64,000 bases of DNA from an uncultured delta proteobacterium. Its GTDB lineage: Bacteria; Myxococcota_A; Polyangia; Polyangiales; Polyangiaceae. Both the position numbers and the translations under genes were made by a program. Positions 28,880 through 44,126 of this stretch are shown here, piece by piece (position 1 is the stretch's first letter; every line of letters starts with the position of its first letter). The stretch lies in assembly GCA_963716725.1 (NCBI GenBank), contig CAVQUB010000018.1:1-64000 (forward strand), in the 5' to 3' direction. The notes below the pieces were generated by a model. It saw nothing but the letters and a program-made list of their open reading frames with translations, searched no databases and was not told the origin of the DNA.

Positions 28880-30415
28880 TCAGAGGCTGCCGAGTGGCTT
28901 GCCGAACTGGAAGACACCGGGGGCCACGTGGCCGCTGATCATCGCGTGCCCGGGCACGCCCAGCAGCGCCACGAAGTCAGTCTCGCTCGAGGGCTGGCCG
29001 GAGACCAGGAAGGCGTCGAAGGGCGTCACGGGCGAGAGCGCGTTCGGGTTGGTGGGCAGCTTGCCCGTGACCGAGAGGTGCATGTGGTGATGGTGGAACT
29101 GGTACCAGCCCTTGCCGGTATTGGTGGTCTCGAAGGCGAGCCTCGACTTCACGGCGGTGCATGACTTCGCGGGCAACCAGCCGGTGGAGCAGAGCGCCGG
29201 CATGGCGCTCTCGACCAAGGGACCGACCTGACCGTCGACGCCGATGACGCGCACGATCTCGCTGGTCATCATCGCGCCGAGGTACAGCGTCGTGCGCCAG
29301 AGATCGAGTTTGTCGGGCGCCGAAACGCAGTGGTACTGATCCGCGCCACCGGACTTGTGCTCACAGACGGGACGCAGCTTGTTGTCGGCAGTCCCGGCCT
29401 GCCAGTACCCGATGTCGATGTCGTGGCCGTTGACGTGTGTGCCCGCCGGGTGTCCGGGTTGACCGACGGAGGTGCCGGGGATGGCGCCGTTGGACTCGCT
29501 CATGTCACCGAGCCCGAGCAGCCCGCCGTTGCCGGTGTTCCAGGCCTTGGCCTTGCAATCGACGTAGGCGGCCGCGTACTTGACCAGCATCTGCGCGTCC
29601 CGCCGCAGGTAACTGCGGTACTGGTTCGACTGCGTCTCCCCGTTGATCGCGTAGTCCTCGTAGCCCGGGCCGAGATCCGGCTCGAAGGGCAGGAGCTCCC
29701 CGCAGTAGGCCAGCGTGCCGGTGCAGTCGCGCACCGGCAGCTTGCCGGTGCAGTCGGGACCTGGCCCCGGGCCAGGACCGCTGCCGGAGTCCGGAACACA
29801 CTTGCCGGAGGGCAGATTGCAGACGAGCCCGGAACCGCAGCTGCCCGCCGTGCAGGGCTTGGCCTCGCACTCGAGGGTCTTTGCGTTACAGACCTCGTTC
29901 GTCTCGCAATCGGAGGGGCCAGCACAACCCGGAACGCAGGCGCCGGCATCAGCGTTGCACGCGTAGGAGCTGGCGCACTCGCTGGAGTCGCCGCAGGTCT
30001 TCAGGCAGAAGGTGTTGCCGCTGGTCATCTTGAAACAGTCGCTGCCGCTGGAGCACGAGCCCGCCTGGCAGTCTGCGGTGGCGCAGTAGCCGTTCGGCCA
30101 GCCTTGGTCTGCGGTGAGGCACACCGAACCGGCAGCGCTGCAGTCACCGTCTTGCGCACACGCCGCGCCGATTTCTCCTTTACCCGGACCGCGGCCACCG
30201 CCGCCCGCGCCCACGGCGCCGGAGCCCGCAGCTCCACCCGAGCCCGAACCGGCCGCACCGCCGCTGGCCATCCCGCCGACGTTGCCGCCGCCGGCGCCCG
30301 TCGCGCCGTTACCGCCGGTCGCCTGCCCGCCGCCGCCACCGCCGCTGGACGAACAAGCGCCGAGTCCCGCTAGAAGTACCGCCGAAATGCCGAAGAAGAT
30401 GCTGGTCTGATTCAT
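28880..30415 (-). CDS. Cys-rich lipoprotein with a C-terminal MepA-like (LAS) zinc peptidase domain
   Basis: Lipobox LGAC; Gly linker; Cys-rich repeats; GDMS...HPAGTHVNGHDIDIGY (H-x6-D) and HHHHMHLSV (HxH). Confidence 0.75.
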   Translation of the reverse strand: MNQTSIFFGISAVLLAGLGACSSSGGGGGGQATGGNGATGAGGGNVGGMASGGAAGSGSGGAAGSGAVGAGGGGRGPGKGEIGAACAQDGDCSAAGSVCLTADQGWPNGYCATADCQAGSCSSGSDCFKMTSGNTFCLKTCGDSSECASSYACNADAGACVPGCAGPSDCETNEVCNAKTLECEAKPCTAGSCGSGLVCNLPSGKCVPDSGSGPGPGPGPDCTGKLPVRDCTGTLAYCGELLPFEPDLGPGYEDYAINGETQSNQYRSYLRRDAQMLVKYAAAYVDCKAKAWNTGNGGLLGLGDMSESNGAIPGTSVGQPGHPAGTHVNGHDIDIGYWQAGTADNKLRPVCEHKSGGADQYHCVSAPDKLDLWRTTLYLGAMMTSEIVRVIGVDGQVGPLVESAMPALCSTGWLPAKSCTAVKSRLAFETTNTGKGWYQFHHHHMHLSVTGKLPTNPNALSPVTPFDAFLVSGQPSSETDFVALLGVPGHAMISGHVAPGVFQFGKPLGSL

Positions 30416-30569
30416 GGTGCCCACCATGTCGTTGGTTGGAGGGCGGTGTCGCACAATGTAGGTGTGGAAGCAAGCGTTGCTCGCCGCGACTCCGCAACTA
30501 GCGGGAGTCGCGCGCGAATGCGCCACGCTGGCGGCGGGTGCGGCCACCCGCCGGCTCGGGTCGCGGCGA

Positions 30570-31073
30570 TCAGCCGGGCGGTTCGAAGTCGCGATCGAGC
30601 ACGGTCTTGCGCCCGTCCCGCGCCGCGTTGCGGATCGCTTCGTTGCAGAGCTTGCGCAGGTGATCGGACAAGATCCCGCTGACCGTGTCGGACGTGTTCA
30701 TGCCGGAGCGCGCCCGCACGTAAGCCTTGAGCTTGGACATCACCACGAGCACGTCCTTCGGTAGCTCGTCGGCGGCGTCGCTGCTCACGATTCTGCGACG
30801 CGGAGCCTCCACCCGTTCCTCTGCTGCTTCCGAGGCGCGTTCATCTTCCTCACGTTGACGTTGCCATTCCGTCGCGGTCGGCGCGCTGCGCTCTTCGGCC
30901 CAAGCGTCGCGATGACGCGCCTCCGGGAGGTGCGCGTCCCAGCACGCCACCGAGCAGAAGTACAAACCCGTTCGTTTGCGGTTGCAGGTCGAGACGCTGC
31001 ACACCCAATATTTCTGTTCGAACTCCAGGGGGCGCTTGCAAATCGAGCAAATCTTCCACGATGACAGTGCCAT
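30570..31073 (-). CDS. Bacterial histone-fold protein with an N-terminal ZZ-like zinc finger
   Basis: CSIC...CSVSTC...CSVACWDAH...H finger; C-terminal VLVVMSKLKAYVRARSGMNTSDTVSGILSDHLRKLCNEAIRNAARDGRKTVLDRDF with the histone-fold RKTV-x2-RD signature; RBS GAGGGAG. Confidence 0.85.
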   Translation of the reverse strand: MALSSWKICSICKRPLEFEQKYWVCSVSTCNRKRTGLYFCSVACWDAHLPEARHRDAWAEERSAPTATEWQRQREEDERASEAAEERVEAPRRRIVSSDAADELPKDVLVVMSKLKAYVRARSGMNTSDTVSGILSDHLRKLCNEAIRNAARDGRKTVLDRDFEPPG

Positions 31074-31087
31074 GGGCGAGCTCCCTC

Positions 31088-34000
31088 TCAAGACTTCTTG
31101 GTTCCGGGCTTCGGCGAGGTGCGGACCGACGAGACAGACCTGCGGGAGGGCGCGACCGACTCGATGGGCGAGACGCAGCGGGTGACCATGAGCAAGTACA
31201 CGACCCGACGGATGACGTCGGGCTCGTGCCCCGCCTCGACGAGTTCTGGCAGCGACGCCTCCGTCATGCCGATGGCGTCGGCAACGGTCATCTCGGCTTC
31301 GTCGAAATCGAATGCGTCCAGGTCGGACTCAGGGTGCAGGTGGAGCGCGTTGCCGGCGACTCGGGTCAAGACGCGGTCCATCGACGTCTCTTCGGGGTGC
31401 TCGCGTAGGCCATGGGTCAGCGTCGCGAGCGGCGAGACCATCCCGGAGATATTCCCCCAAATGGCCTCCAGCAAGTCGAGGCCATTGTAGAACGAGTACT
31501 TCGTCCCTGACGGCAGCCCGAATAGATACACGAGCCTTTCTCCGAGCTGCTGGTTGCGAATCAGCGCGATTTGCTCGGCGCTCACCAGACCGAATTCGAC
31601 GAGTTCCATCTCGAGGCTGGCTTCGTGCATTGGCGGCTGCGAGATCGGCTCGCTTTCGAGCTGAGCCTGCTCGAGGAGTCCGTTCGCGACGAGCGTCGCC
31701 CCGAGCGGTGCAACGCGACGGCCGATGTGCAGCTTGGTCGGGATGCCCTGCTGGAAGTACCCCGCGTGCTCCACGGGGGAGTCGTCGACGCGCTCCACCG
31801 GCTCGGTGAAAATGAGTGTTCCGGTCAGCGAACGATCCAAGAGGTAAAGTAGGATGTGCGAGAAGGGAGTCCGCTCGAAGGAACCGCTGGCACTGGGAGC
31901 GTGAGCTTGCTCGAAGCCAGCCGCGCCGCGTTCTGCGGGGGGCAGAGTCTTCGGCGCTCGGCGCCACTGCATGGATGGCGCCGACGGCTCGACCTCGGAG
32001 ATTTCGTGAGGATCTAGGGAGAGGTCTTCGATGACGGGGCCACGGTCCGGCGGGGCCACGGCCGCGGACGATCGCCTCGTGATCGAGGGCCCGACGCTGG
32101 GCGGCGCCGGTCGACGCGACGGCACGCTCTTGCTCGGCGTGTCGTCCATGGAAGGAGGTGCGACCGATTTGCGCGGCGGCCCCACCGAGGGTGGCGATGG
32201 CGCGAGGCGCCGCATCAGGGCAGACGGCGTCGAGGGCGTCGACGGACTCGACGGCGTCGAGGGCGTCGACGGATAAGAGGGCGACGTGAGCTCGAAGCTG
32301 CGCATCTCTGCGCTCTTCGGTTCGGCGTTGCGCAGATCGGACGCGTCGTGGATCACGGTTCGGTCTTCGGACCCCGGCAACCGCAGCGCGCGAGGCGGCG
32401 CGACCGGCATGACGCCGGGCCTGTCCTGTCGGGAGGGTCGGGCAGCCGCGGGGGTCTCCACGGGCGGGAGGGGCACCGAGGCCGCGCGCGGCGGGCGCGC
32501 CGGCGCCGGCTCGGGTTCGCCCTCGGGCTCGACGTCGGGCAGCGAATCGGTCGAGAACGCCAGCTGCTCGTCCAGCAGCGCCTCGGAGGAGATGTCCAAC
32601 ACCTGATCGGGTCCCAGCTCCTCCACCTCTTCGGCGGGTACCTCCTCGGGTTCGGGTTCGGGTTCGGGTTCGGGTTCGGGTTCGGGTTCGGGTTCGGGTT
32701 CGGGTTCGGGTTCGGGTTCGGGGGCGGGTGCGGGTTCCGATTCGGGTGCGGGGGCGGGTTCGGGGGCGGGTTCCGATTCGGGTTCGGGCATGTCACCGAA
32801 CACGTCCGGGAGCTCGGGCTCGTAGGGCAGACCGCCGGCCGCCTGAACCGGTCGAGCGGGCGGAATGGTGACGACCGCATCCGGGCTCGGCGCATCATCG
32901 CGCTGGGGCGGCACCGTGGGCACGGCGTTGAGCTCGTCGTAACTCTCCGGTGGCTCGGAGGGCGGTCGCTGCGGCGCCGGAGCCTGGGCCTTCACTGTCG
33001 CGAGCACCTTGGCCTGCGCCTCGGCCAACGCCGCGTCTGCAGCGACGACGCCGGCGACCTGGCGCGCAGGGTCATTCGCGAGATCGATGGCCACCCGCGC
33101 CTTCAGGTGCCCGCCCTGGGCGTCGTAGACGAGGCGGACCGTCGGGTTCACGTAGTCGGACGGCTCGGCGGGCGTCTTGAGCACCACCCCGCGCTCGCCG
33201 GTGTTGAGCTGTACCGGCGTGCCTCGTGGAAAGATCCCGAGCGCTCCCACCAGCAACGCCAGCATCGCTCGCGCAGTCGCGTCCTTCGCTTCAACACGCA
33301 TCTGCTCGAGTGCCTCGTCCGGCGTGAGCGTGGCGGCCGCCGCCAGATCGGGCTCGAGCAGCTCGTTGAAGCGGTTTGCCGTCGCGACGATACGGGGCGC
33401 CACCATGGCTCGTCGAGCGCCCCCGTAGAGCGGACCGAATTGCTCTGCTTGCCGCATCCAGTGCGACTCGTAGCCAATCACGGTACGCACCATGGATGCC
33501 GGGCGAAGCTGACCGAGGGCGGTGAGCACCAAGGCAGTTGCAGCTGGAAGGCGCTGCTCGGCGTCCTCGGTCATTCGCATCACCACGACCTCATTGCCGC
33601 GTCCGACCACACCCGTCACGAGCGGGTGCGCCACGTCGAAGAACAGGGCGCTCATCGCGATACGCGCCAACGCTCCGAGGTCGTTCGTGAGCTGCCGCGC
33701 CACCGCCACCGCGAGAATGCTGCGGTTCACCGAGCGGCCCGCCGTATCGTGGTTCAGGTTTCGCATGGCAGTGATGCCGAGAAACGCAGGGGTGTCGCCC
33801 TCCGAGAGCATCACCAACCGCTGCGCCAGGCGCTTGGCGTGGTGCGGCAGTTGGTAGCGTCCGTTGGTGAGGTTCTCGAAGATGCGTCGCATGACCACCA
33901 CACTGGTGGCGTAGGTGCGAACGACTTGCTCCTCGACCGTGAGATCTTCTTCTCCCTCGCCCATCCGAGCCGGATTGACGTAGCGCAGTCGAACGCGCGG

Positions 34001-34459
34001 TGATGGCTCGATGACTCCGTTCTCGGCGCGGGCGTCGCCCTGCTGAAAAAGGCGCGCCAGGGCCGTCAGATCGGCACGGGTGGCGTCGGTCTCGATCATG
34101 ACCTCGGAGACGCCCAGCCTTCGGACCATGGCGCCGAGTTCGAGGGCGTTTTCGTATTCACCACGCGAGGCTTTGAGCAGGTGACCGGCCACGAACACCG
34201 TGCTCTTGGCGAAGAGCAAAGTCAGCGGCTCGCCGGTCGCCACGCCGAAACCCCGAAGCGCCTCGACGGTCTGATCGATCTGCTGGAGCACGGCCATGTT
34301 GTCGATGGCGTGAAGCTGGACAATCTTGAGCAAGCGGAAGATCTGAAGTGCCAACGACGCGCCGATCTCGCGTTGTTGATGGGCCTGTGCGAGTTCGGCG
34401 ACGTTCCGCAGATAGGCGTTCTGTTGCGCCTCGTCGGCGGTCTGAATGCCGTCGCTCAT
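31088..34459 (-). CDS. Large signalling protein: degenerate HD-GYP-like domain, Pro/Glu/Ser-rich linker, C-terminal DUF4388-like domain
   Basis: [16 protein letters not shown]...[37 protein letters not shown] (HD-GYP scaffold); [26 protein letters not shown] (DUF4388-like). Confidence 0.75.
32651..32722 (-). repeat. Perfect hexanucleotide microsatellite (TTCGGG)x12, encoding (PE)n
   Basis: Twelve identical units counted, flanked by degenerate PA/PE/SE codon pairs. Confidence 0.95.
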
Positions 34460-37194
34460 CGCTGCAGTCTCGCCTTGAATTGGATCGCCGCCTGCTGCGC
34501 CGCGTTCTTGACCGCGGCCGAGTTGCCCCACTTGCCCGAGGCCTGCTCGAGGACCTGGAGGACTTCCTTGGAAGTGCCGACCCTGACCAAGAAATGCATG
34601 GCCAAGATCCGGGTATCGTCGACGTCCTCGCGGGTGAACATGCCCGCCTTCGACACCAGATCTTTCAACAGGGCCTCGCCTCGGGCCGGAGACAGTTCGT
34701 ACAAGGTCTCGAAGAAGAGCTGCCGCTCGTCGACGGCCAGCTTGTGGAAGGCCGCGCTCTGGATGTGTAGGGCGAGCGGCGGCCCAGCTTCTTTCACCTT
34801 GTAACGCACCAGGGTGCGAAGCGAAGCCATCCGCACGGCGGGGTCGTGATCGGTCATCAGCTTGCCGAGCTCGTCGCGCAGGCCCTCCATGTTGGCGGCC
34901 GCGCGCATGGCCACTGCCTCGACGCGCAGCTCCGCGTGGGGGCTGGTCTCCGCCTTGCGCAACGCGACGGCGGCGGCCTCGGTCTTGAGCCGCCCCAAGA
35001 GCGCCAGCACGACCTTGCCGCGCGCGAGGTCGGGGTCGTCGAGCAGCTCACCAATGCGCTCCTCGCGCCCAACCGCGTGCTTCTCCAAGTAGCGAATCAA
35101 AGCGTTTCTAACGTCCTCGATCTCGGCGCGCGCCATGGCGCCGAGCACCGCTCCGAACGACTCCGAGCCCGCGTCCTCGAGCAGCACGGCGAGGTAGGGA
35201 GCACAGCGAGTGATCTTGGGCCACTCTGCCTCGGGCAACTTGCGCGTGAGCTCCTTGAGCACCATCGTCAGGGTGTCCTCGTCGAGCACCCGCCGCACCA
35301 GCTCGCTACGGATCTCGGGGCCGCCACGCACCGACACGCTCTCCGCCACGGCCACCACCATCCGGAGAGCAAACTCCAAGGTTTGGCTGGCCGCGTTCTC
35401 GTGCAGCGCGCCACCGAGGGGCACAGCCGCCAGGGGCAAGTTGCCGAAAGTCACCGCGTCGTTGGCAGCGTCGGCCAACGCATCGACGAAGCGCGCCTCC
35501 CACTCGTGCTCGGGCATGTCCATGGCTGCGGCGATGGCGGCCCTCGAACGCTCGTCGAGCGCCAGCGCGGAGGAGGCACGGACGGCGCGCAGCGCGACCT
35601 GACGCGCGGCGATGGCCGCGGCCTTTTCTTCGAGGTCCATGGCCTCGTCAGGCTCCGCGTTCTCGCCGCGGCGGCGGTTGATTGCGGCCAGGATCTGATG
35701 CCCGTCCTCGAGCAACGCCTCGTACTGGCGAGCTACCTCGTCGGAGGCGTTGAGCGCCAAGAACGACATCACGACCAGGTATCGCACGTGTTCGAACCCG
35801 CGCTCCCAGAACGCGGTGGCCATGTCGTCTTCGGGAGAGAAATCCCGATACGGGTCCTTGCGAACGAGTTCGAGCCAAGCGCGGAGCTCTTCCGCCGTGA
35901 TGCCGGGCAGAAATGTGAACTTGCGGAACCCGCTGGCGAACAGGTTGTAGGGGATCTCGTCGAAGGGATGCAGCGGCTCCCAGAGTACGGCTCCGCGCTT
36001 GGTGAACGAGTGCGGCTTCACGTCGAAGACGAAGTCTTCGGGGTGGCGGGCCAGAACCTGGCCGAGCACCTCGGCGGTGGCCGCGATCTGCTGCGAGGTG
36101 ACCGGGTGGTCCCAGGTGTACTGGCGGACGGCCGTGAGCGCGCGTTCGATTTGACGAAAGGCTTCTTGCAAGTGCGCCACGAGTTGCTGCTCGTCGGGCG
36201 AGAGCGGCGCTTCGCGTTTGGCCCCTTCCTCTTGCTCAGCCAGCGCGGCGAGCTGGCTGGCCGCTGGGGCCTTCCGCTCGGGCTCGGCAGCTCTTGGTTC
36301 CGCCGCTTGGTCCTGCAAGACGCCGAGGATTCGCGCGATTTCGTCGCGCATCTCCTGGGCGTTCTGGAAGCGGTTGCGCGGATCCCATTGCAGGGCACGG
36401 TCCACCAGCGCCACGGCATCGGGCGGCAAATCGCCCTTTGCTCGGGCAACGCTGGGCGCGGGTCGGGTGGCCGCGAGCACGAAGGCCTCTTGATGCGAGC
36501 GCCCTTCGTGGAGGCGCTTGCCGCTGAGCATCGCGTGCAGCACTGCGCCGATGGAAAAGAGGTCGGTGCGCGCGTCGATACGGTCGTTGGATCCGAGCGC
36601 CTGTTCCGGAGCCATGTACGCGGGCGTGCCGAGGGCGGTGCCGGCCAAGGTCGGGTCGACGCCGGCTTCACGCAGGCGGGCGACGCCGAAGTCGAGCACT
36701 TTTACGTAACCGGAGTCCGTGACGAAGATGTTCGCGGGCTTGAGATCGCGGTGAACGATGTTCATGCCGTGACACACCGCGAGAAAGTCGAGCACGCGGT
36801 CGATGATCTCGAGCGCGTACTCCACCGGCAGCGTGCGGTTGTGGCGCTTCCACAGCTTGTCGAGGGTGACCCCTTCGAGGATCTCCATGACGAAGTAGGG
36901 CTCGCCGTCCGCGCTGGTGCCTTCGTCGTAGATCTCGACGCGACCCGAGTGGTCCACCGCTTGAGTGAGCTTTGCCTCTCGGATGAAGCGCTGACGAACC
37001 CCGTCGTTGGTCGAGAACTCCGAGTGCAACACCTTGATCGCGACGGGGTTGCCGTCCGGATCCTGGGACTGGTAGACGGCCGCCATTCCGCCGAGGCCGA
37101 TCAGCTTCTCGATCGGCCACTTGTCCGCGACGACGGTCCCGATGCGCTGTTTGGCGAGGCTCAGCTCGTCTTGAACTGGCTGCTCTGCGGCCAT
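34456..37194 (-). CDS. Ser/Thr protein kinase with C-terminal HEAT-like repeats
   Basis: [40 protein letters not shown]; helical repeats such as [14 protein letters not shown]. Confidence 0.92.
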
Positions 37195-37300
37195 GGCGTG
37201 CCCCGACGGGATCAGCTCATCATAGAAGCGTCACCAGGCGAGGCAAGCGTCTGGACCTTGGATTCCCCTTGGGATTTGCCGCACCCCCAGGAACACTCGT

Positions 37301-39085
37301 TCAGCGCTTCGAGCGCCGCGATCGCCCGAGGCGCCGGAGCGGCAGCGCGACGGCGGAAAAAAGCAGGAAAAGCGCGCTGACGCGGAGCCGGCGGGGTCGG
37401 CTGCGGATCGAGCAATCGCCGCCGCTGGACCCCGACCCGCAGCTGTCCCCGCCTCCGGCGTCGCCTCCGGAGCAAGTGTCCCCTTCGGCGCCGGACCCCG
37501 AGTCTCCACCACAAGTGTCAGCATCCCCATTCCCGGTGGAGTCGCCCGCGCAGGTGTCGCCTTCGTCACCCGCGCCTGTCGAGTCGCCGCCGCAGGTATC
37601 ACCGTCATCGGAGCTCGAATCGCCGCTGCAACCGTCGTCGGATCCGTTGGAGCTGCTGCCGTTGCACGACTCCACGAATTGAACCCCACAGCTCACGTCG
37701 ACCCGCGGCTCGGGAGTCGGATCGGGCTCCCAGTACCCCGTGCTCGCGCCGTAGCCGCCTTGGGCTCCGTCGCCGCCGTAGCCCGCGCCGCCGGTAGTGC
37801 CTCCGGAGCCCGTGCCGCCGCCGACCCCACTGGTGCAGCCCGTCGTATTTTGGGTGGCTGCCGTCACCAGCAACGACACGGGGGGTCCTTGGGTCAGGGC
37901 GAGGGCTGCGGCATCCGGAGAGTTCGGGCCGGCGATGGTCGCGTGTCGGGTGATGCTGACCAAGTCTGCGCGCATCCCGGCGAGTGCGAAGGCGATGTCA
38001 TCGGCTCCGCCGCATCGCAGCGACGCGACGGAGATCTCCCCAGCCCCGGGCGCCTCGGTGCAGGCCGGCGCGCCGGCGAGATCTGGAACCGAGACGAGGG
38101 CTCCCGCGGCGCACGCGCGAGCAAGACGGGCACCGGTCTTGCCCGCAGCGATCGCGTCCCAAACCGGCGCGACGCAGAGGTCCGAGGGCGAGACTCCGGC
38201 GACCTCTTTCTTGGCCTTCTCGAAGTAGCTCTTCACGCCAGGCGCGAGGGCGCCGGCGCCCGCAGGCAGGACCGTCCAGCCGAAGAGCGGTGTGCTGCCG
38301 CTGCTCTCGATCACCGAGAGAGCGCCTTGTTTCGCCAGGAGCTCGGTGCGGCGGTCCTGCACGTAGCTGCTGATCCCGTCGACCGATAGCCACTCGTTTC
38401 CGACCTCGCTCGCGCCGATCTCTTCCACCCCGGCCACCCAACCCGCTCGGCCCTCCGCGATGCTGAACAGCGTCACGTCCGGCGAAGCGTCGGAGGCAAG
38501 GAGTGCGATGTGAGGCGACGGACTCGCCGTCGGCTGGGCGATCCGGAGCGGCTCCGAAATGCCTTTTTCCTGGCCCAGATCGTACACAACGGCGACGAAG
38601 CGCGGGGCCCCTGTCGCTGCCAGCGCCGCGACGTCGTCGTTGTCCAGACTGACTCCTTGCTGAATGGCGAAGGACCCGACCTGCGTGAGATCGTCGAGCA
38701 CGGCGATGGTGCTCGGAGCCAGGGAGCTCTCGGGACTCGAGCTCGTGTTCTCGAGGGAGCCCTCGTGAGTCGCTCCGCAAACAAGCACGGGCTTGGGAGG
38801 GCGAATGCGCGGAGCCGTCACGCCGTCGATGGCGAAGAAGAACGCTTCGAGGGACGGATCCACCCTGGTGCCCGGGGCGACGGGCAGCACCACGACGAGC
38901 CGCCCGGGACCGCCCTCGACACCGAGCGAGAGCCACTGGGTCGTCCACAGGGGAGCGCGGGCAATGGCGACGCGCGACGAGCTGACGAAGATTGTCCCGT
39001 CGGAAGCGGTGAGCACCCTGCCCGCGCCCTGCGCTGAACTCGCCGCTAGTACTAGCGCCAAAGAGAAAGCAACCCGACGAACCAT
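37301..39085 (-). CDS. Secreted DUF2330-like surface protein with a Gly/Asp/Cys stalk and MYXO-CTERM-like tail
   Basis: Start MVRRVAFSLALVLAASSAQG (upstream part of ORF 37301..40513 is shadow); VVLPVAPG...FFAIDGVTAPRI; tail GGDCSIRSRPRRLRVSALFLLFSAVALPLRR. Confidence 0.7.
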   Translation of the reverse strand: MVRRVAFSLALVLAASSAQGAGRVLTASDGTIFVSSSRVAIARAPLWTTQWLSLGVEGGPGRLVVVLPVAPGTRVDPSLEAFFFAIDGVTAPRIRPPKPVLVCGATHEGSLENTSSSPESSLAPSTIAVLDDLTQVGSFAIQQGVSLDNDDVAALAATGAPRFVAVVYDLGQEKGISEPLRIAQPTASPSPHIALLASDASPDVTLFSIAEGRAGWVAGVEEIGASEVGNEWLSVDGISSYVQDRRTELLAKQGALSVIESSGSTPLFGWTVLPAGAGALAPGVKSYFEKAKKEVAGVSPSDLCVAPVWDAIAAGKTGARLARACAAGALVSVPDLAGAPACTEAPGAGEISVASLRCGGADDIAFALAGMRADLVSITRHATIAGPNSPDAAALALTQGPPVSLLVTAATQNTTGCTSGVGGGTGSGGTTGGAGYGGDGAQGGYGASTGYWEPDPTPEPRVDVSCGVQFVESCNGSSSNGSDDGCSGDSSSDDGDTCGGDSTGAGDEGDTCAGDSTGNGDADTCGGDSGSGAEGDTCSGGDAGGGDSCGSGSSGGDCSIRSRPRRLRVSALFLLFSAVALPLRRLGRSRRSKR

Positions 39086-39209
39086 GCCACTCGCGTCCAG
39101 AGCAACGATCGTGCCGCGAGGGGATCCGCGGGGCACACGGGCGACTTCTCGGTCCCGCGTGAACGCCGGTTGGCCGTCGAGCCTGTGCGCCTGCTGCGTC
39201 ACCCGGCGC

Positions 39210-39898
39210 TCACTTGGGCGCGCACGTCGCATAGCCCGGGGGCAACGCCGAATCTGGCGAGCATGCCGTCCCGGACGCGCAGGCCTTGCCCCCGGGATGA
39301 CACACCTCGCGCCGCGTCGCACCCACTCGGTCGCTGGTGCAGGTCTCCCGACATTCGAGCAGGTCCCAGATGGAGGACACGAGGCCCTTCTCGGCGCAAC
39401 ACACCTTGCCCGCTGAGCAGTCTTCGGGTCCGTCGCACTTGATCTCCGATCTCGTGGCAGACGACGCCGCTGCATTTGCACGGATTCGAGAGCTTCGTGT
39501 TCGAGCAGTACAGCGGCTTGCCGTCCGCCTTGCAGCAGGCGTCGCCGGCGCTGAAGGCGCAGCTGAGGGCGCCGCAAGGCCCGGTGCCGATGCCCGGCGG
39601 ACCTCCGCCGCTGCCTCCGCCCGTGCCTCCACCGCTGGACGTCGCTCCCGTGCCGCCGCTTCCCCCACTGCCACCGGTGGCGGCCGAAGCGCCGCTGCCG
39701 GCCGCACCGCCGGACGCCATGCCCGCGGCGCCGCCGCTCGCGCTGCCCCCGGATCCGGCGCCGCCACCAACGCTGGTTCCCGCCGCGCCGCCCGCTCCGC
39801 CTTTGGCCGTGCTGTAGAGCCCGCCTTCTTCGGAGCCGCCGCAGGCCGCGACGCAGGCGCCCGCCGCGAGAAACAGCATGCGAGCCATCACCGCCATC
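39210..39898 (-). pseudogene. Cys-rich lipoprotein split by a +1 frameshift at ~39447 (possibly a sequencing error)
   Basis: N-part ...ACVAACGG, Gly linker, CGALSC...CHEI; removing one G continues EIKCDGPEDCSAGKVCC...YATCAPK in ORF 39210..39770. Confidence 0.7.
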
Positions 39899-39970
39899 GC
39901 CCACGAATCCTGGCCCGAAGCCGGGCCGGAAGCAACCGACCTCGGAGCCAACTCGGCGTAAGCTGCCCGC

Positions 39971-40846
39971 GTGGACTACGTCGGACGCATCTATCGGCCG
40001 CCCAGCGAGAGCGGGAGCCTGCTCCTGCAAGTCACGGTCGGGTGCAGCCACAACCGCTGCTCGTTCTGTGACATGTACCGTGACAAGGCTTTTCGAGCCA
40101 AGCCGCGGGAGCAGATCGAGCACGATCTCGTCGAGGCCAGCGGGCTCGGCCCCGGCGTCTCGCGCGTCTTCTTGTGCGACGGCGATGCGTTGATCCTCTC
40201 CACCGCGCGCTTGATCGAAATCCTGAGCTCCATCCGCAAACACCTGCCCTGGGTCCAGCGCGTGGGCACCTACGGGGACACGCGCAGCGTGGGAAAGAAG
40301 AGCCCCGCGGAGCTGCGCGAACTCGCGGACGCCGGGCTCGGCATCGTCTATCACGGGGTCGAGAGCGGGAACGACGAAGTGCTGGCCTTCATCGACAAAG
40401 GTGGCACCCGCGAGCAGTGCATCGCAACAGCAGGCAAGTTGCGCGACGCCGGCATCGTGCACTCGGTGATCGTTCTGCTCGGCATCGGTGGTACGCGCTG
40501 GTCGGAGGCGCACGCTCGAGACACCGCCACGGCGCTCACCGCAATGGACCCACCCTACGTCGGGGCGCTCACGACCACCGTCGTGCCGGGAACGCCGCTG
40601 GCCGCCGCAGAGGCCCGAGGTGAGTTCACGCTACCGAGCAAGTTCGCCTTGCTCCGCGAGCTGGGCACCCTGGTCAGCGAGAGTGAGCTGTCCGCGTGCC
40701 GGTTCTCGTCGAACCACGCCAGCAACTATTTGCCCGTGCGGGCTGAGCTGCCGCGTGACAAGGACGAGCTGGTGCGCATTCTCTCGGCGCTGATCGCCGA
40801 GGGAGACGAGTCGCGACTGAAGCCCGAGTGGATGCGGGGCCTCTGA
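39971..40846 (+). CDS. Radical SAM protein, function unknown
   Basis: IYRPPSE, QVTVGCSHNRCSFCDMY (CxxxCxxC), FLCDGDAL, GVESG, SNHASNY. Confidence 0.9.
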   Translation: MDYVGRIYRPPSESGSLLLQVTVGCSHNRCSFCDMYRDKAFRAKPREQIEHDLVEASGLGPGVSRVFLCDGDALILSTARLIEILSSIRKHLPWVQRVGTYGDTRSVGKKSPAELRELADAGLGIVYHGVESGNDEVLAFIDKGGTREQCIATAGKLRDAGIVHSVIVLLGIGGTRWSEAHARDTATALTAMDPPYVGALTTTVVPGTPLAAAEARGEFTLPSKFALLRELGTLVSESELSACRFSSNHASNYLPVRAELPRDKDELVRILSALIAEGDESRLKPEWMRGL

Positions 40847-41658: not shown

Positions 41659-43113
41659 TCACGCCCCGAGGCGCTTCTCGAGTCTTTCGATCTCGCGGTT
41701 TGCGTCGAGGAATCGTTCGGCCAGAGCCGTCACGAAGGTCCGCATCCAAGAGCGTTGCCCGCACTCTTGCTCCAGCGCGTCGAGCGTGATCTCCATCACC
41801 TCGACGTCGTCAATGGCCACGACGCTGGCCGCACGCGGCTGATCGGTGAAGATGCTGGTCTCGCCGAAGGCCTCGCCGGCACCCATCATCCGCAGCGACT
41901 GCCGCTTTCCGTCGGCGATCTTGTAGGCCTCGCAGCGGCCGCTGTTGATGATGTACGCCGCATCCGGGCGCTCGCCCTCACGCACGATGACCGTGCCGGC
42001 CCGGAGTTCGAGCGTGCGAAACCAGCCTCCGCCGCGCAAAAAGTCGGACACCGCACCCTTGAGCGCGTCGACGCTCGGATAGCGTTGCGACTGTTCAGCG
42101 GACAGCGCCTTCATTGTGATCCGACACAGCCCCGGCGGAAGGCGGAGCGCAGCCACTACTTGGCTAGGCGGGTCGATGTCGCCACGGAGGCTCTTCTCGA
42201 TGGCTTGCTGGGAGCTCTCGGCGGCATGGGGCGCTCGATTCGTGAGGATCCGATACAGGATGCCACCCAGGCCGAATACGTCTGTGCGCTCGTCGATCTC
42301 GGAGACCTTGCCTCGCGCCTGCTCCGGCGCCATGTACGCCGGCGTGCCGATGACGGATCGCGACAGCTCGTAGGACGCGACACCGATGCCCCGAAGCGCT
42401 CCGCTGTCGAGGCCAAAGTCCGACGGCCGGACGCCGGCCGCGAGGCGCGCGATGCCCCAATCCATCAGGTAGACCTGGCCGTGACTCCCGACCATCACGT
42501 TGTCGGGCTTCAGATCGCGGTGAATCACGCCACGGCTGTGCGCAAAGGCCACCGCGTCGCAGAGCTTGAGGAATACCTGCAAGAGCCCTTCGATATGGGC
42601 GCCCGTGAGCTGTTCCGTGTGGGCCTGGGTCACCAGCTCTTTGAGCGTCTTGCCCCGCACCAGCTTCATGGTGAAGGTCGTCGCGGCGCCCGTCTCATCC
42701 ACGCCGATGTCGTGAACCGGAACGATGTTCGGGTGATCGAGCTGACCGGTGATCTGCGCTTCTTCCAGAAACCGCGTCGCGGCGTCGGGCAGCAGGCGCA
42801 CGCTCGGGTGCAGACGTTTCTCGGCCACGGTGCGCAACAGCGCGCGGTCGAACACCCGGTGCACGCTGCCCATGCCGCCGCGACCGATCTCGCCCTGGTC
42901 TTGGAACCGCTCTTCTCTCGCGGTCGGCACGGGGTCGGAACGGTCCGACGCGGGAGAGTCCGCGCCGCCCTGGACCCTCACGCTGTCGGAGCCGTCGGCG
43001 TCGAGGGCCAAGGTGTCGAAATCTGCAGCCGTAGAGGGCTGCTCCCGGGGCTGTGCCGCCGCGCTGCTGGGGCCGACGCGGCCGATGTCGCGTGTCGCCT
43101 CGTCCTTGCTCAC
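41659..43113 (-). CDS. Ser/Thr protein kinase with a C-terminal cyclic-nucleotide-binding domain
   Basis: [38 protein letters not shown]...AYIINSG...GEAFGETSIFTDQPRAASVVA; GTG start overlaps the upstream TGA. Confidence 0.9.
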   Translation of the reverse strand: MSKDEATRDIGRVGPSSAAAQPREQPSTAADFDTLALDADGSDSVRVQGGADSPASDRSDPVPTAREERFQDQGEIGRGGMGSVHRVFDRALLRTVAEKRLHPSVRLLPDAATRFLEEAQITGQLDHPNIVPVHDIGVDETGAATTFTMKLVRGKTLKELVTQAHTEQLTGAHIEGLLQVFLKLCDAVAFAHSRGVIHRDLKPDNVMVGSHGQVYLMDWGIARLAAGVRPSDFGLDSGALRGIGVASYELSRSVIGTPAYMAPEQARGKVSEIDERTDVFGLGGILYRILTNRAPHAAESSQQAIEKSLRGDIDPPSQVVAALRLPPGLCRITMKALSAEQSQRYPSVDALKGAVSDFLRGGGWFRTLELRAGTVIVREGERPDAAYIINSGRCEAYKIADGKRQSLRMMGAGEAFGETSIFTDQPRAASVVAIDDVEVMEITLDALEQECGQRSWMRTFVTALAERFLDANREIERLEKRLGA

Positions 43114-44126
43114 ACTGCACCTCCACCCGCGCCGAAGTGGCGGTCCAAGAAGGCATAGGTGTGGGCCCAGCAGCGCCGCGCGTTCGCGGTGAAGACCAAG
43201 GCGTGAAAGGCGTGCAGTTCGCCTTGATAGTAGCGGGCCTCGCACTCGACGCCCATCTCGTCGAGGGCGCGTGCGAGCCGCTGGGTGTCGTCGATCAGCG
43301 GGTCGGAGGTCCCGCAGGGCGCGAAGAAGGCAGGGAGGGGCCGCTGGGGGACGTCGCCGCGTTCGAGGACGACCAAGGGGTCCGCCAGCTCGAGCTGCTC
43401 CGGTTGGTGGCGCTGAACGTCCCCGAGGTACGACTCACGGACCTCGCTCAATCGATCGTGGATGAAGCCGCTCATGTGGGGCCAACGGCGGCGGAAGCGC
43501 TGCACGTCGCTGACGTGGTAGATGCCGCAGGCCGCCACCACCGCCTTGGGACGGATGCCGCTGTCGAAGACCCGAGCCGCCCAGGGCTCGCTGCGCCGAT
43601 AGCTGCTCATCAGCGCCAGCGAAGTGACCAGGTTCGCGCCGGCGCTCTCACCGGCGAAGGCCAGGCGGTCCAGATCACCCCCGTAGCGGGCCGCGTTCTG
43701 TCGAACCCACTCGAGCGCCGCGGCAACGTCCTGCACTGCTGCGGGAAAGCGGTGTCGCGGAGCCAAACGGTAGCTCACGTTGAACACCAAGTAGCCTCGG
43801 CGGGCAAAGGCGAGGCCCATGACCCAGTGGGTGTCCTTGCTCAAGATGCGGAAACCGCCGCCGTGCACGTAGAGCACCACCGGAACTCGATCGAGCTCGC
43901 CGCGCGCGAGCCCTCGAGGCCGGTAGATGTCGAGGCGGTGCTCGGCGAGGCCGCTATCGTCGTACGCGACGTCGCGGATCACCTCGACGTCGTGGCGTTC
44001 TGGGCGCGCCTTCGGATGAAGCTGCCCTAGGCGAGACAACCCACGAAAGAAATTGTCGACGAGCAGCGAGCCGGCATTTCGGCGAAGCCGGGTCGGCAGG
44101 CGGCGCAGCGGTCCTGTGGGTGCCAC
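43110..44126 (-). CDS. Alpha/beta hydrolase (HSL family esterase)
   Basis: HGGGF, YRLAP, GESAG, DPL, HAF; start uncertain. Confidence 0.9.
   Translation of the reverse strand: MAPTGPLRRLPTRLRRNAGSLLVDNFFRGLSRLGQLHPKARPERHDVEVIRDVAYDDSGLAEHRLDIYRPRGLARGELDRVPVVLYVHGGGFRILSKDTHWVMGLAFARRGYLVFNVSYRLAPRHRFPAAVQDVAAALEWVRQNAARYGGDLDRLAFAGESAGANLVTSLALMSSYRRSEPWAARVFDSGIRPKAVVAACGIYHVSDVQRFRRRWPHMSGFIHDRLSEVRESYLGDVQRHQPEQLELADPLVVLERGDVPQRPLPAFFAPCGTSDPLIDDTQRLARALDEMGVECEARYYQGELHAFHALVFTANARRCWAHTYAFLDRHFGAGGGAV

Follow-up and report, generated by a model that had tools for sequence, protein, structure and literature searches.

A conserved gene pair for a HEAT-repeat kinase and a degenerate HD-GYP protein, followed by a ZZ histone gene in one lineage of Polyangiaceae

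The window, that is the whole stretch of 64,000 nucleotides analyzed here, carries on its minus strand three tightly packed genes in the order kinase-HEAT, middle gene and histone. An earlier note on this DNA had proposed these three co-directional ORFs, and they were recovered at the same positions: a Ser/Thr kinase of 912 aa whose C-terminal region is non-catalytic, with helical and HEAT parts (34456..37194), a middle protein of 1123 aa (31088..34459) and a histone of 167 aa (30570..31073). The TGA stop of the kinase gene (34458..34456) and the middle-gene ATG (34459..34457) form an ATGA overlap (34456..34459, minus strand). The middle gene ends with TGA at 31090..31088 and is followed by a 14-nt spacer (31074..31087, minus strand; GAGGGAG CTCGCCC) which holds a GAGGGAG ribosome-binding site (31081..31087), and the ATG of the histone gene lies at 31073. 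Two longer ORFs, 31088..34531 (GTG start) and 30570..31091 (TTG start), are upstream extensions of the middle and histone frames; the ATG starts used here, which are those of the earlier note, match both the onset of homology and the start positions of relatives. Related genomes repeat these junctions. Of 24 homologous loci, 17 show an NTGA overlap between kinase and middle gene and 4 have a middle-gene start that precedes the kinase stop by 5 nt; the remaining three comprise a 9-nt gap (L131) and two unreadable junctions (L126 and L127). In 7 of 8 loci, the histone start lies -8 to +18 nt from the end of the middle gene, and in the eighth the gap is 9 or 45 nt depending on the start chosen. 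All three genes therefore have the overlaps or very short gaps of an operon, as had been claimed.

From the sequence, co-transcription of the three genes is plausible. A predicted sigma-70-like promoter (TTGCCT, 16 nt, TATGAT; 37219..37246, minus strand) ends 25 nt before the kinase ATG; it is a match to the consensus and the sole promoter-like site in 30300..37500, where shuffled sequences give a mean of 0.3. No sigma-70-like site was found between the three genes or within the middle gene, in a scan whose consensus myxobacterial promoters may not fit. With the same reservation, a histone promoter inside the upstream gene, which the earlier note had named as evidence against its own proposal, did not appear. 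The terminator scan gave no match between the three genes or after the histone. A G+C-rich hairpin lacking a T run (30531..30554, minus strand), 16 nt after the histone stop, is a candidate terminator; its minimum free energy is -41.3 kcal/mol over 76 nt, with z = -1.23 against shuffles, and it is therefore not distinguishable from base composition.

The first gene encodes what its translation suggests is an active-looking Hanks kinase with HEAT repeats. Pfam detects a Pkinase domain (PF00069, E 1.7e-40) at aa 29-280 (36355..37110, minus strand), in which the catalytic Lys and the HRD, DFG and APE motifs can be read, and HEAT_2 (E 3.5e-6) at aa 749-808, within a HEAT-repeat C-terminal region spanning aa 641-912 (34459..35274, minus strand); the kinase-HEAT call of the earlier note is thus confirmed. 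Between both lies a conserved domain (aa 331-640; 35275..36204, minus strand) with invariant W-E-P, P-Y and E-D-D, over which Pfam found no family. This is the part still recognizable in the upstream gene of distant families that give no kinase-domain match, and tblastn with it returned matches in 20 of 20 loci of the order and in 8 of 10 distant loci. An Atlas feature search with aa 331-912 retrieved stand-alone bacterial HEAT-repeat proteins of 560-625 aa (scores 0.97-0.98).

The middle protein (minus strand) would consist of an alpha/beta domain, a degenerate HD-GYP domain, a small beta domain, a disordered linker and a PATAN-like end. In the AlphaFold2 model of its N-terminal 500 aa (32960..34459; mean pLDDT 78.7), the alpha/beta domain covers about aa 1-160, the helical HD-GYP part about aa 175-410 and a five-stranded beta domain about aa 415-471. 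The top 11 Foldseek matches of this model in the PDB are all HD-GYP structures (best E 8.2e-4, probability 1.00), Bd1817, 4mcw, DvhD and PA4781 among them, which points to an HD-superfamily helical fold of the HD-GYP type; the TM-score normalized to the query is low (0.35) because the model has several domains. In agreement, a profile search against PDB sequences aligns the protein weakly with the HD and GYP regions of HD-GYP proteins (5z7c, E 0.015; 4r8z, E 0.17). The predicted fold is common to the active phosphodiesterases 4MCW, PA4781 (4R8Z) and V-cGAP3 (5Z7C) and to Bd1817 of Bdellovibrio (HDG"Y"P, 3TM8; 350 aligned columns), which is itself not known to be active. The extra alpha/beta N-domain, the beta domain, the linker and the PATAN end distinguish the middle protein from Bd1817 and the HD-GYP enzymes.

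Unlike active HD-GYP phosphodiesterases, the family of the middle protein has neither the GYP motif nor the metal-ligand histidines. In the profile alignment, the family has xD opposite the HD motif and (A/G)(Y/F)E opposite HHE. The HD histidine is F in the window's protein and H in 5 of 19 aligned members; 18 of the 19 have Arg for the first metal-ligand histidine, and a single one has His at the position equivalent to HHE. Only D275 and E331 are invariant among the metal-ligand positions of the 19 members, and the metal-binding pattern H...HD...H...HH...D is absent from the window's protein. In place of GYP it reads G-P-L-Y with shifted spacing, G342 being kept in 17 and Y345 in 18 of the 19 members. 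By these residues, the HD-GYP domain is degenerate and almost certainly non-catalytic.

A low-complexity linker rich in Pro, Glu, Ser and Thr, with a (PE)n run and S/T-P repeats in the translation, follows at about aa 500-850 (31910..32959); closer homologues of the protein vary in length between 869 and 1073 aa. The C-terminal 273 aa (aa 851-1123; 31091..31909) resemble PATAN, the domain also called DUF4388 (PMC12448109). Taken in isolation, this region matches DUF4388 with E 4.3e-4 and 20.8 bits, below the Pfam cut-off of 25 bits, and 14 of 18 aligned homologues match with E <= 0.01 (best 7.1e-8); a precomputed PF14332 match is carried by 4 of the 51 relatives listed. PATAN is a domain of PatA-type regulators; the middle protein has no receiver domain, and its PATAN-like end is partnered with a pseudo-HD-GYP domain instead of REC. 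In Sorangium and Chondromyces, the counterpart of the middle protein has no PATAN end but a J domain and TPR repeats. On the full-length protein, Pfam and NCBIfam gave no HD match and DUF4388 at a sub-threshold 0.013.

The small protein is, by its sequence and its model, a ZZ histone, a further member of the class described in 2024 (Schwab et al. 2024, Nat Commun 15:7950, PMC11390915), for which D0LYE7 of Haliangium ochraceum is an example. Its relatives are numerous (3157 at E <= 0.001 among 3219 candidates scored). The predicted ZZ-type zinc finger lies at about aa 6-60 (30894..31058, minus strand), where C9, C12, C40 and C44 together with C25, C30, H48 and H54 are invariant in 22 aligned sequences. 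This C4 plus C2H2 arrangement corresponds to the positions of the ZZ-histone HMM given in the published account (C10/C13/C41/C43 and C26/C31/H49/H55; PMC11390915), and Foldseek matched the N-terminus with the p62 ZZ domain (probability 0.96, TMt 0.63). The C-terminal part, about aa 108-165 (30579..30752, minus strand), is modeled as a short alpha3-truncated histone fold with helices 112-123, 129-152 and 160-163, similar to bacterial dimer histones, and its top Foldseek matches are HBb of Bdellovibrio and HLp of Leptospira (E 2.9e-4 to 2e-2, 33-41% identity). It contains RKTVLDRD at aa 155-162, with R155, T157, R161 and D162 invariant in the alignment, which fits the RKTxxxD motif reported for bacterial dimer histones (PMC11390915). 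Pfam CBFD_NFYB_HMF is matched by 6 of 22 family members (best 3.9e-6), and the window's histone reaches sub-threshold scores only in Pfam and NCBIfam (CBFD_NFYB_HMF 0.027, archaeal histone 0.0063). Because the scores of the window's own middle and histone proteins stay below threshold, both domain calls rest on folds and relatives, and on these the degenerate HD-GYP/DUF4388-like protein and the zinc-finger bacterial histone of the earlier note hold up.

Like the published ZZ histones, the protein combines an N-terminal ZZ finger with C4 and C2H2 sites, a flexible linker and a C-terminal bacterial-dimer-like alpha3 fold with RKTxxxD, and it occurs in Myxococcota. The best structural match to its histone-fold half is HBb (Bd0055, Bdellovibrio bacteriovorus; 8CMP/8FVX/9EZZ), with 39-41% identity over 58-61 columns, E 2.9e-4 to 6.7e-4 and target-normalized TM-scores of 0.67-0.70, though HBb has no ZZ domain. 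The HBb dimer bends DNA (PMC11390915; PMC11317129). The ZZ histone, a small protein, is probably a DNA-bending nucleoid protein. HBb is reported as highly expressed and the ZZ histone of Bdellovibrio as weakly expressed (PMC11390915). According to the same source, genes of nucleoid proteins, alpha3 histones included, are generally single-gene operons; the gene in the window differs from the published ZZ histones in lying 14 nt behind a two-gene signaling module.

The conserved unit at this locus is the kinase-HEAT and pseudo-HD-GYP pair and not the three-gene set. In 20 of 20 regions surrounding the best matches within the order, the gene immediately before the pseudo-HD-GYP gene encodes a kinase-HEAT protein. 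Among 10 regions from distant Myxococcota families and the third paralogue of the own genome, 8 have an upstream gene with the kinase middle domain, so that the association of the pair extends beyond close relatives. For the histone it does not. We found the histone behind the pair only in the sister genera g1 and g18, which amounts to 6 of 24 sampled genomes of the order with both genes; among 80 ZZ-histone loci taken from species genomes, 3 have the full trio. The domain of the middle protein occurs with no detectable ZZ histone match in 28 of 52 genomes, 13 of them from the same family and 96-100% complete. The pair is also duplicated with no histone in the window's own genus, and a paralogous pair in the same genome has none; the tree places the g18 sequences with histone outside the g1 sequences with histone and the g1 paralogue without it (support 100/100 and 99/98).

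The histone link is thus restricted to one small lineage of Polyangiaceae, where it sits inside a longer collinear block. In the same g1 and g18 genomes, the genes downstream of the histone (a secreted protein, a DUF2254 membrane protein and a HAD hydrolase) are collinear too, and the adjacency of histone and DUF2254 persists in genera g12 and g13, which lack the kinase module. The histones of g1 and g18 are 58-62% identical to that of the window, yet the short spacing behind the middle gene is kept, as expected of a maintained operon. Since this spacing is short across two genera and no internal promoter or terminator match was found, a real functional link may exist within the lineage.

Tight spacing behind another gene is not specific to this arrangement, and elsewhere ZZ-histone genes follow unrelated genes at 7-32 nt. 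While in 45 of 75 assessable ZZ-histone loci no co-directional ORF ends in the 150 nt before the histone gene, the histone lies at most 32 nt behind another gene in 14 of the 75, and read-through transcription therefore seems common for the family. In 11 other loci, the distance to a co-directional ORF is -1 to 32 nt; Pfam names seven of these ORFs, which are mutually unrelated (FKBP, glycerol-3-phosphate acyltransferase, trypsin-like protease, Ig-domain protein, DUF2834, SNF2 helicase and FemAB-like).

We consider it probable that the locus represents a conserved, translationally coupled signaling pair, with the histone downstream in one lineage as a passenger and not as its dedicated target. 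The first gene encodes a cytoplasmic Hanks Ser/Thr kinase joined to a scaffold of helical and HEAT parts, and the second a partner with an almost certainly dead HD-GYP core, which is extended by a long disordered linker rich in S/T/P and by a PATAN-like adaptor. The gene arrangement suggests that both proteins form a complex, in which the pseudo-HD-GYP subunit may assist the kinase scaffold without enzymatic activity, as a regulator or ligand binder, while its linker and PATAN end may be substrate or output. In the common ancestor of the two genera, a ZZ-histone gene would have come to follow this module directly. Transcription of the histone in the g1/g18 lineage probably starts at the module promoter, which would couple its expression to the module; no observation points to the histone as a dedicated target.

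Alternatively, the histone gene may be a unit of its own, transcribed from a promoter inside the 3' end of the middle gene, and its adjacency to the pair would be synteny by descent with no shared transcript. The gene has its own strong ribosome-binding site, and both the published tendency of alpha3 histone genes toward single-gene operons (PMC11390915) and the 45 loci with no close co-directional gene upstream are in line with such independence. However, the 14-nt gap is too small for a promoter outside coding sequence, the sigma-70 scan gave no site within the middle gene (with the limits of the consensus mentioned above), and the 14 loci with the histone close behind another gene also speak against it. 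On balance, we regard an independent histone unit as unlikely, while granting it some weight.

The earlier note had proposed a pathway from phosphorylation or c-di-GMP to the histone. In such a pathway the kinase, perhaps controlled by a cyclic dinucleotide through the degenerate HD-GYP domain, would phosphorylate or recruit the ZZ histone and remodel the nucleoid. Ser/Thr kinases of Mycobacterium do phosphorylate nucleoid proteins, and at the locus itself the operon-like spacing is kept in 8 of 8 g1 and g18 loci with no internal promoter or terminator match. In addition, the 78 kb that lie no more than 500 bp from ZZ-histone genes across the 80 loci hold 7 kinase domains (0.9 per 10 kb), where the flank density predicts about 1.6; farther away the density is about 0.2 per 10 kb, which makes kinases about four times denser near ZZ histones, and in one locus (L003) the histone is flanked on both sides by kinase genes. 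This excess could hint at a recurrent kinase-histone association, although it shrinks once related loci are collapsed, the counts ignoring phylogeny. The nearby kinases differ, forming about four orthology groups, and are not orthologues of the window's kinase. With at least 150 kinase domains in the 7.9 Mb of the own genome, finding one two genes from a histone is unremarkable. Neither is the histone of the window special, being 53-62% identical to ZZ histones in unrelated contexts. The synteny proposed as a check does not support the pathway either: the link is limited to two sister genera within a longer collinear block, many genomes with the middle domain have no ZZ histone match, nearly or fully complete ones of the same family among them, and the module was duplicated without the histone. 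We therefore judge a dedicated pathway quite unlikely.

A same-phylum precedent for a second messenger acting on a nucleoid protein is CdbA of Myxococcus xanthus, a c-di-GMP-binding nucleoid-associated protein (PMC7156744, PMC10313047), which also lends the pathway some plausibility. CdbA is a ribbon-helix-helix protein that itself binds c-di-GMP and, unlike the proteins of the window, has no histone fold, kinase or HD-GYP partner. The earlier statement that no characterized system of this kind was known does not stand in full, given that the ZZ class is published (PMC11390915) and CdbA is known (PMC7156744). Of the kinase-HEAT/pseudo-HD-GYP pair itself, we found no description in the literature searched.

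Somewhat more doubtful still is that the g1/g18 lineage captured the ZZ histone as an output of the module, the dead HD-GYP domain sensing a nucleotide or protein signal and switching the kinase so that DNA bending is altered. The kinase would then phosphorylate the linker or fold of the histone, or the HEAT/PATAN scaffold would sequester it. If true, this would be a bacterial counterpart of signal-dependent histone modification, and the mild excess of kinases beside ZZ histones of other lineages would reflect a general habit of control by Ser/Thr phosphorylation. To our knowledge, bacterial histones have been recognized only recently and nothing is known about their regulation, which would make a histone under kinase control a notable case; the evidence that this locus offers for one is weak. 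Finally, that the middle protein is an active HD-GYP phosphodiesterase lowering c-di-GMP or cGAMP under kinase control, as its predicted fold, the JGI name [quoted passage not shown] on 3 of 51 listed relatives and the 3 of 19 aligned relatives reaching Pfam HD_5 would suggest, is highly improbable given the family-wide replacement of the metal-ligand histidines, with no HH pair, and the lack of a Pfam HD family match in the window's protein.

The passenger reading leaves a modest signaling pair, a deeply conserved and translationally coupled kinase/HEAT scaffold with a catalytically dead HD-GYP partner as predicted from its residues, which would be a further candidate among the few pseudo-enzymes of cyclic-dinucleotide signaling, maybe receptors or scaffolds. 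As the pair occurs in the cultivable Sorangium and Chondromyces, it can be studied. In addition, the finding that ZZ-histone genes often lie directly behind unrelated genes qualifies the view of single-gene units in the published account (PMC11390915).

The three genes lie on the minus strand of the window just as the earlier note had laid them out, and their coordinates, the ATGA overlap and the 14-nt gap were all confirmed. The kinase-HEAT gene (37194..34456) ends in a TGA stop that overlaps the ATG of the middle gene (ATGA, 34459..34456), and the stop of the latter (TGA, 31090..31088) is followed by a 14-nt spacer containing GAGGGAG and then by the histone gene, 167 codons from the ATG at 31073 to the end at 30570. 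When 30300..37500 was scanned, the sole sigma-70-like match fell 25 nt upstream of the kinase ATG, and no promoter-like or terminator-like site was found at either junction of the trio. A G+C-rich hairpin after the histone stop was also considered as a structured element and rejected, being no better than shuffled sequence (z = -1.23).

The conserved pair formed by the kinase-HEAT gene and the middle gene, which encodes a degenerate (pseudo-) HD-GYP protein, constitutes an undescribed and more robust feature of this locus than the histone link. Among the papers covered by our literature searches none describes such a pair, judging from titles and the starts of abstracts. In a survey of 201 genomes sampled from the order, with the N-terminal 500 residues of the middle protein as query, this domain was matched in 52, and each of the 20 regions retrieved at the strongest matches shows a kinase-HEAT gene directly upstream of the pseudo-HD-GYP gene. 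Among 24 loci, 17 join the two genes by an NTGA overlap, and in four more the start lies 5 nt ahead of the stop; of the remaining loci, L131 has a gap of 9 nt and L126 and L127 were unreadable. Ten further regions represent distant families within the phylum and the third paralogue of the window's own genome, and in eight of them (one of the two misses being a region cut by a contig end) a gene with the middle domain of the kinase protein is found just upstream, three of these eight genes having no kinase-domain match. The recurrence of the upstream kinase-type gene in both samples, together with the overlapping junctions, indicates that the pair is old and tightly coupled, and the translational coupling of its two genes is conserved. 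The constant partner of the pseudo-HD-GYP protein may be, as far as these sequences suggest, the scaffold and not the kinase.

The window's own genome holds two further copies of the pair, at G000:C2:417000-432000 (L114) and G000:C30:56500-67500 (L153), with no histone near either within the fetched regions. One copy retains a PATAN end and has an N-terminal domain 66-67% identical; identity falls to 37% in the other, where the open frame of the partner spans only about 560 aa. In family f54 of the phylum (L144, L145 and L150), the gene upstream of a pseudo-HD-GYP gene of roughly 505 aa lacks a kinase-domain match and retains the kinase-protein middle domain at 25-30% identity over about 150 aa.

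The kinase protein itself matches Pfam Pkinase (E 1.7e-40) over aa 29-280 and HEAT_2 (E 3.5e-6). Its translation contains every one of the catalytic motifs, [15 protein letters not shown] and APE, and since this set is complete the window's Hanks kinase seems active. The part from residue 331 to 912 is similar to HEAT-repeat proteins that stand alone in bacteria and measure 560-625 aa (Atlas feature scores 0.97-0.98), and no Pfam family is named in residues 331-640.

As for the third gene, Pfam and NCBIfam gave weak matches for the histone and for the middle protein, and both assignments were settled through relatives and folds. Alone, the histone protein gives sub-threshold histone matches only (Pfam E 0.027, NCBIfam E 0.0063). 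Its family comprises 3157 proteins with E <= 0.001 out of 3219 scored candidates, many carrying the JGI name 'histone H3/H4', and Pfam CBFD_NFYB_HMF is reached by 6 of the 22 aligned members. In this alignment (A1) eight Cys/His positions are invariant, C9, C12, C40 and C44 along with C25, C30, H48 and H54, which are the counterparts of the C4 and C2H2 sites of the 'ZZ histones' of Schwab et al. (PMC11390915). In the PDB the AlphaFold2 model (mean pLDDT 77.5, linker 88-109 disordered) comes closest to Bdellovibrio HBb (39-41% identity, E 2.9e-4 to 6.7e-4), with Leptospira HLp among the further matches, and its N-terminal half matches the p62 ZZ domain. On account of the conserved Cys/His sites and these fold matches, the window histone is a new member of the already published ZZ histone class. 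It is present as one copy in its own genome, which is 84% complete.

About one third of the relatives in A1 (P0036, P0054, P0064, P0078, P0088, P0114 and P0125) are 'doublets' of roughly 245-290 aa, in which a single ZZ domain precedes a tandem pair of histone folds, an arrangement that would allow a pseudo-dimer inside one chain. In 17 genomes of families f7 and f22 of the order, a set that includes the unpublished genome G123, the histone profile matches the ZZ half only (positions ~3-80), often with a stop just after; these may be ZZ-only proteins or split genes.

For the module as a whole, we consider it reasonably probable that the kinase-HEAT and middle proteins work as a complex with which, in the window's genus (g1) and its sister genus (g18), the histone is co-expressed. 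Within such a complex the pseudo-HD-GYP domain would have a regulatory or ligand-binding role, and that of output or adaptor would fall to the variable C-terminus of the middle protein; the ZZ histone of g1 and g18 would probably be expressed along with the pair. In seven of the eight loci of this clade the gap between the middle gene and the histone gene measures -8 to +18 nt, while the eighth has 9 or 45 nt, and such short gaps would fit read-through transcription. Transcription of the histone independently of the pair is, in our opinion, unlikely. In its favor, alpha3 histone genes as a rule form single-gene operons according to Schwab et al. (PMC11390915), a pattern to which the window locus and 11 other tight loci are exceptions. 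Overall, a co-directional ORF ends <= 32 nt upstream of a ZZ histone in 14 of 75 assessable loci, and 11 of these 14 lie outside the g1/g18 clade. Pfam names seven of those 11 upstream ORFs: an FKBP isomerase, a glycerol-3-phosphate acyltransferase, a trypsin-like protease, an Ig-domain protein, a DUF2834 protein, a SNF2 helicase and a FemAB-like protein. The ZZ-histone gene thus evidently tolerates being appended to many unrelated genes, so that tight spacing alone is weak evidence of shared function. In the SNF2 case (L065, a Myxococcota MAG), the histone start (about L065:9986) lies 11 nt past the helicase gene (L065:6846-9971, plus strand; 1042 aa, SNF2-rel_dom E 9.2e-64), placing a remodeller-like ATPase directly upstream of the histone.

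Co-expression with the pair, the reading we prefer, is to be distinguished from a dedicated pathway leading from the kinase and/or c-di-GMP sensing to a histone-like nucleoid protein. The latter had been proposed in the earlier note, and we regard it as quite unlikely. The domain calls made there for all three proteins were right, judging from folds, relatives and Pfam; the synteny with the histone is lineage-restricted, and the pathway proposed to lead to it is weakly supported. The histone-side scan used one genome per species and confirmed 537 relatives out of 599 pattern matches, and the full trio occurs in three (L001, L002 and L008) of the best 80 loci kept. A GC3-based ORF picker missed several lower-GC loci, and because of this synteny counts were taken from tblastn hits and not from gene calls. 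A histone-alignment search of the same 201 genomes matched 49, a tally that includes G123, otherwise unused. Both genes occur in 24 genomes; they are adjacent in six and, in the other 18, on different contigs or about 2.5 Mb apart, where contig breaks may mask adjacency in a few fragmented assemblies. The synteny check thus placed the histone beside the pair in two sister genera only, g1 (own genome, G093 and G138) and g18 (G150, G182 and G185). Of the 52 genomes that carry the middle-protein domain, 28 gave no ZZ histone in the same search, 13 of these being 96-100% complete genomes of the window's own family.

In the maximum-likelihood tree of the pseudo-HD-GYP domain, the g1 copy with the histone groups with the g1 paralogue that lacks one, and g18, which has the histone, is sister to both (supports 100/100 and 99/98). 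This points to a single origin of the histone link, the two-gene pair having later been duplicated by itself. Past the histone, collinearity with the window continues in g18 and L008 (secreted protein, DUF2254 membrane protein, HAD hydrolase), and in genera g12 and g13 the histone still adjoins the DUF2254 gene with no module upstream. In this sense, the histone link looks like a single juxtaposition inherited within a conserved block.

Kinases in general were also considered as neighbours of ZZ histones. With 150 of 212 candidates scored, the 7.9 Mb of the own genome hold at least 150 kinase domains, or ~0.2 per 10 kb, the same density as that found >500 bp from the histone in the 80 loci; at <=500 bp it reaches 0.9 per 10 kb (7 hits, 80 loci). 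These adjoining kinases are not orthologues of the window kinase. As they collapse to about four independent orthology groups and kinases make up ~3% of genes in such genomes, we take the enrichment as a hint and do not count it as support. When the three neighbours to either side of the histone were clustered, using those 58 of the 80 loci in which the crude ORF picker located it (the other 22 were dropped), no family recurred in more than 11 loci, and a conserved operon partner for ZZ histones was rejected; the largest cluster consists of generic Ser/Thr kinases in mixed positions and orientations. In L003 the histone (about L003:9998-10519) lies between two kinase genes: one on the plus strand (L003:4942-9942), for a kinase of 1667 aa that also carries an AAA_16 (STAND-type) domain, ends 52 nt upstream, and downstream lies a 295-aa kinase gene (L003:10547-11431) whose kinase-domain match begins 64 nt past the histone match. 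Mycobacterial Ser/Thr kinases phosphorylate nucleoid proteins. A precedent for a second messenger acting on a nucleoid protein is described for Myxococcus CdbA (PMC7156744, PMC10313047). In the three papers found to use the term 'ZZ histone' (the 2024 paper, its preprint and a 2025 paper on a tetrameric bacterial histone) no word begins with 'phosphorylat'.

Regarding the middle protein (1123 aa), no HD or HD-GYP family was matched in Pfam or NCBIfam. It includes an N-terminal alpha/beta domain and a small beta domain. Modelled with 19 homologues from the fetched loci, residues 1-500 (mean pLDDT 78.7) gave HD-GYP structures as its top 11 Foldseek matches (best E 8.2e-4), among them Bd1817, 4mcw, DvhD and PA4781; the sequence profile weakly matches the HD-GYP enzymes 5z7c (E 0.015) and 4r8z (0.17), and Pfam HD_5 is reached by 3 of the 19 relatives. 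In the profile alignment F-D of the window stands opposite the canonical HD, and 5 of 19 members retain the histidine; Arg replaces the first ligand histidine in 18 of 19, HHE becomes (A/G)(Y/F)E and GYP becomes G-x-x-Y. From this alignment, the middle protein carries a degenerate HD-GYP domain that should not bind catalytic metals, and that it is an active phosphodiesterase, as the fold might suggest, is highly improbable.

Residues ~500-850 form a low-complexity linker rich in Pro/Glu/Ser/Thr (window 31910..32959, minus strand), with a (PE)n run of ~20 repeats and an S/T-P repeat stretch, [21 protein letters not shown], at aa ~580-630 and 770-800. This stretch bears a superficial likeness to the heptads of the RNA polymerase II CTD, and a Ser/Thr kinase would find in it a natural substrate. 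DUF4388, equivalent to PATAN (PMC12448109), is matched by the last 273 residues at 20.8 bits, below the cut-off of 25, and 14 of 18 homologues match it at E <= 0.01. The C-terminal modules vary among partners: PATAN in the window, J domain plus TPR in Sorangium and Chondromyces, and none in forms of about 500 aa. The Sorangium and Chondromyces proteins (P0158-P0171), from cultivated Polyangiaceae, are pseudo-HD-GYP orthologues of about 1330-1450 aa at 42-46% identity, with a J domain in place of PATAN and mostly with TPR repeats; their annotation reads 'DnaJ domain-containing protein'.

On either side of the trio lie genes (37301..40513 and 28880..30547, both minus) whose proteins have signal-peptide or lipoprotein-like starts and Gly/Cys/Asp-rich regions, and the true starts of both long ORFs are very likely internal methionines. 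Pfam and NCBIfam assign no significant family to either, the lone match being a sub-cut-off DUF2330 (E 0.058). A second Ser/Thr kinase gene (41659..43245, minus; Pkinase 1.1e-34) lies 4.5 kb upstream and encodes a C-terminal cyclic-nucleotide-binding domain (cNMP_binding 1.3e-22), and a third kinase gene of the window is found at 54536..57082.
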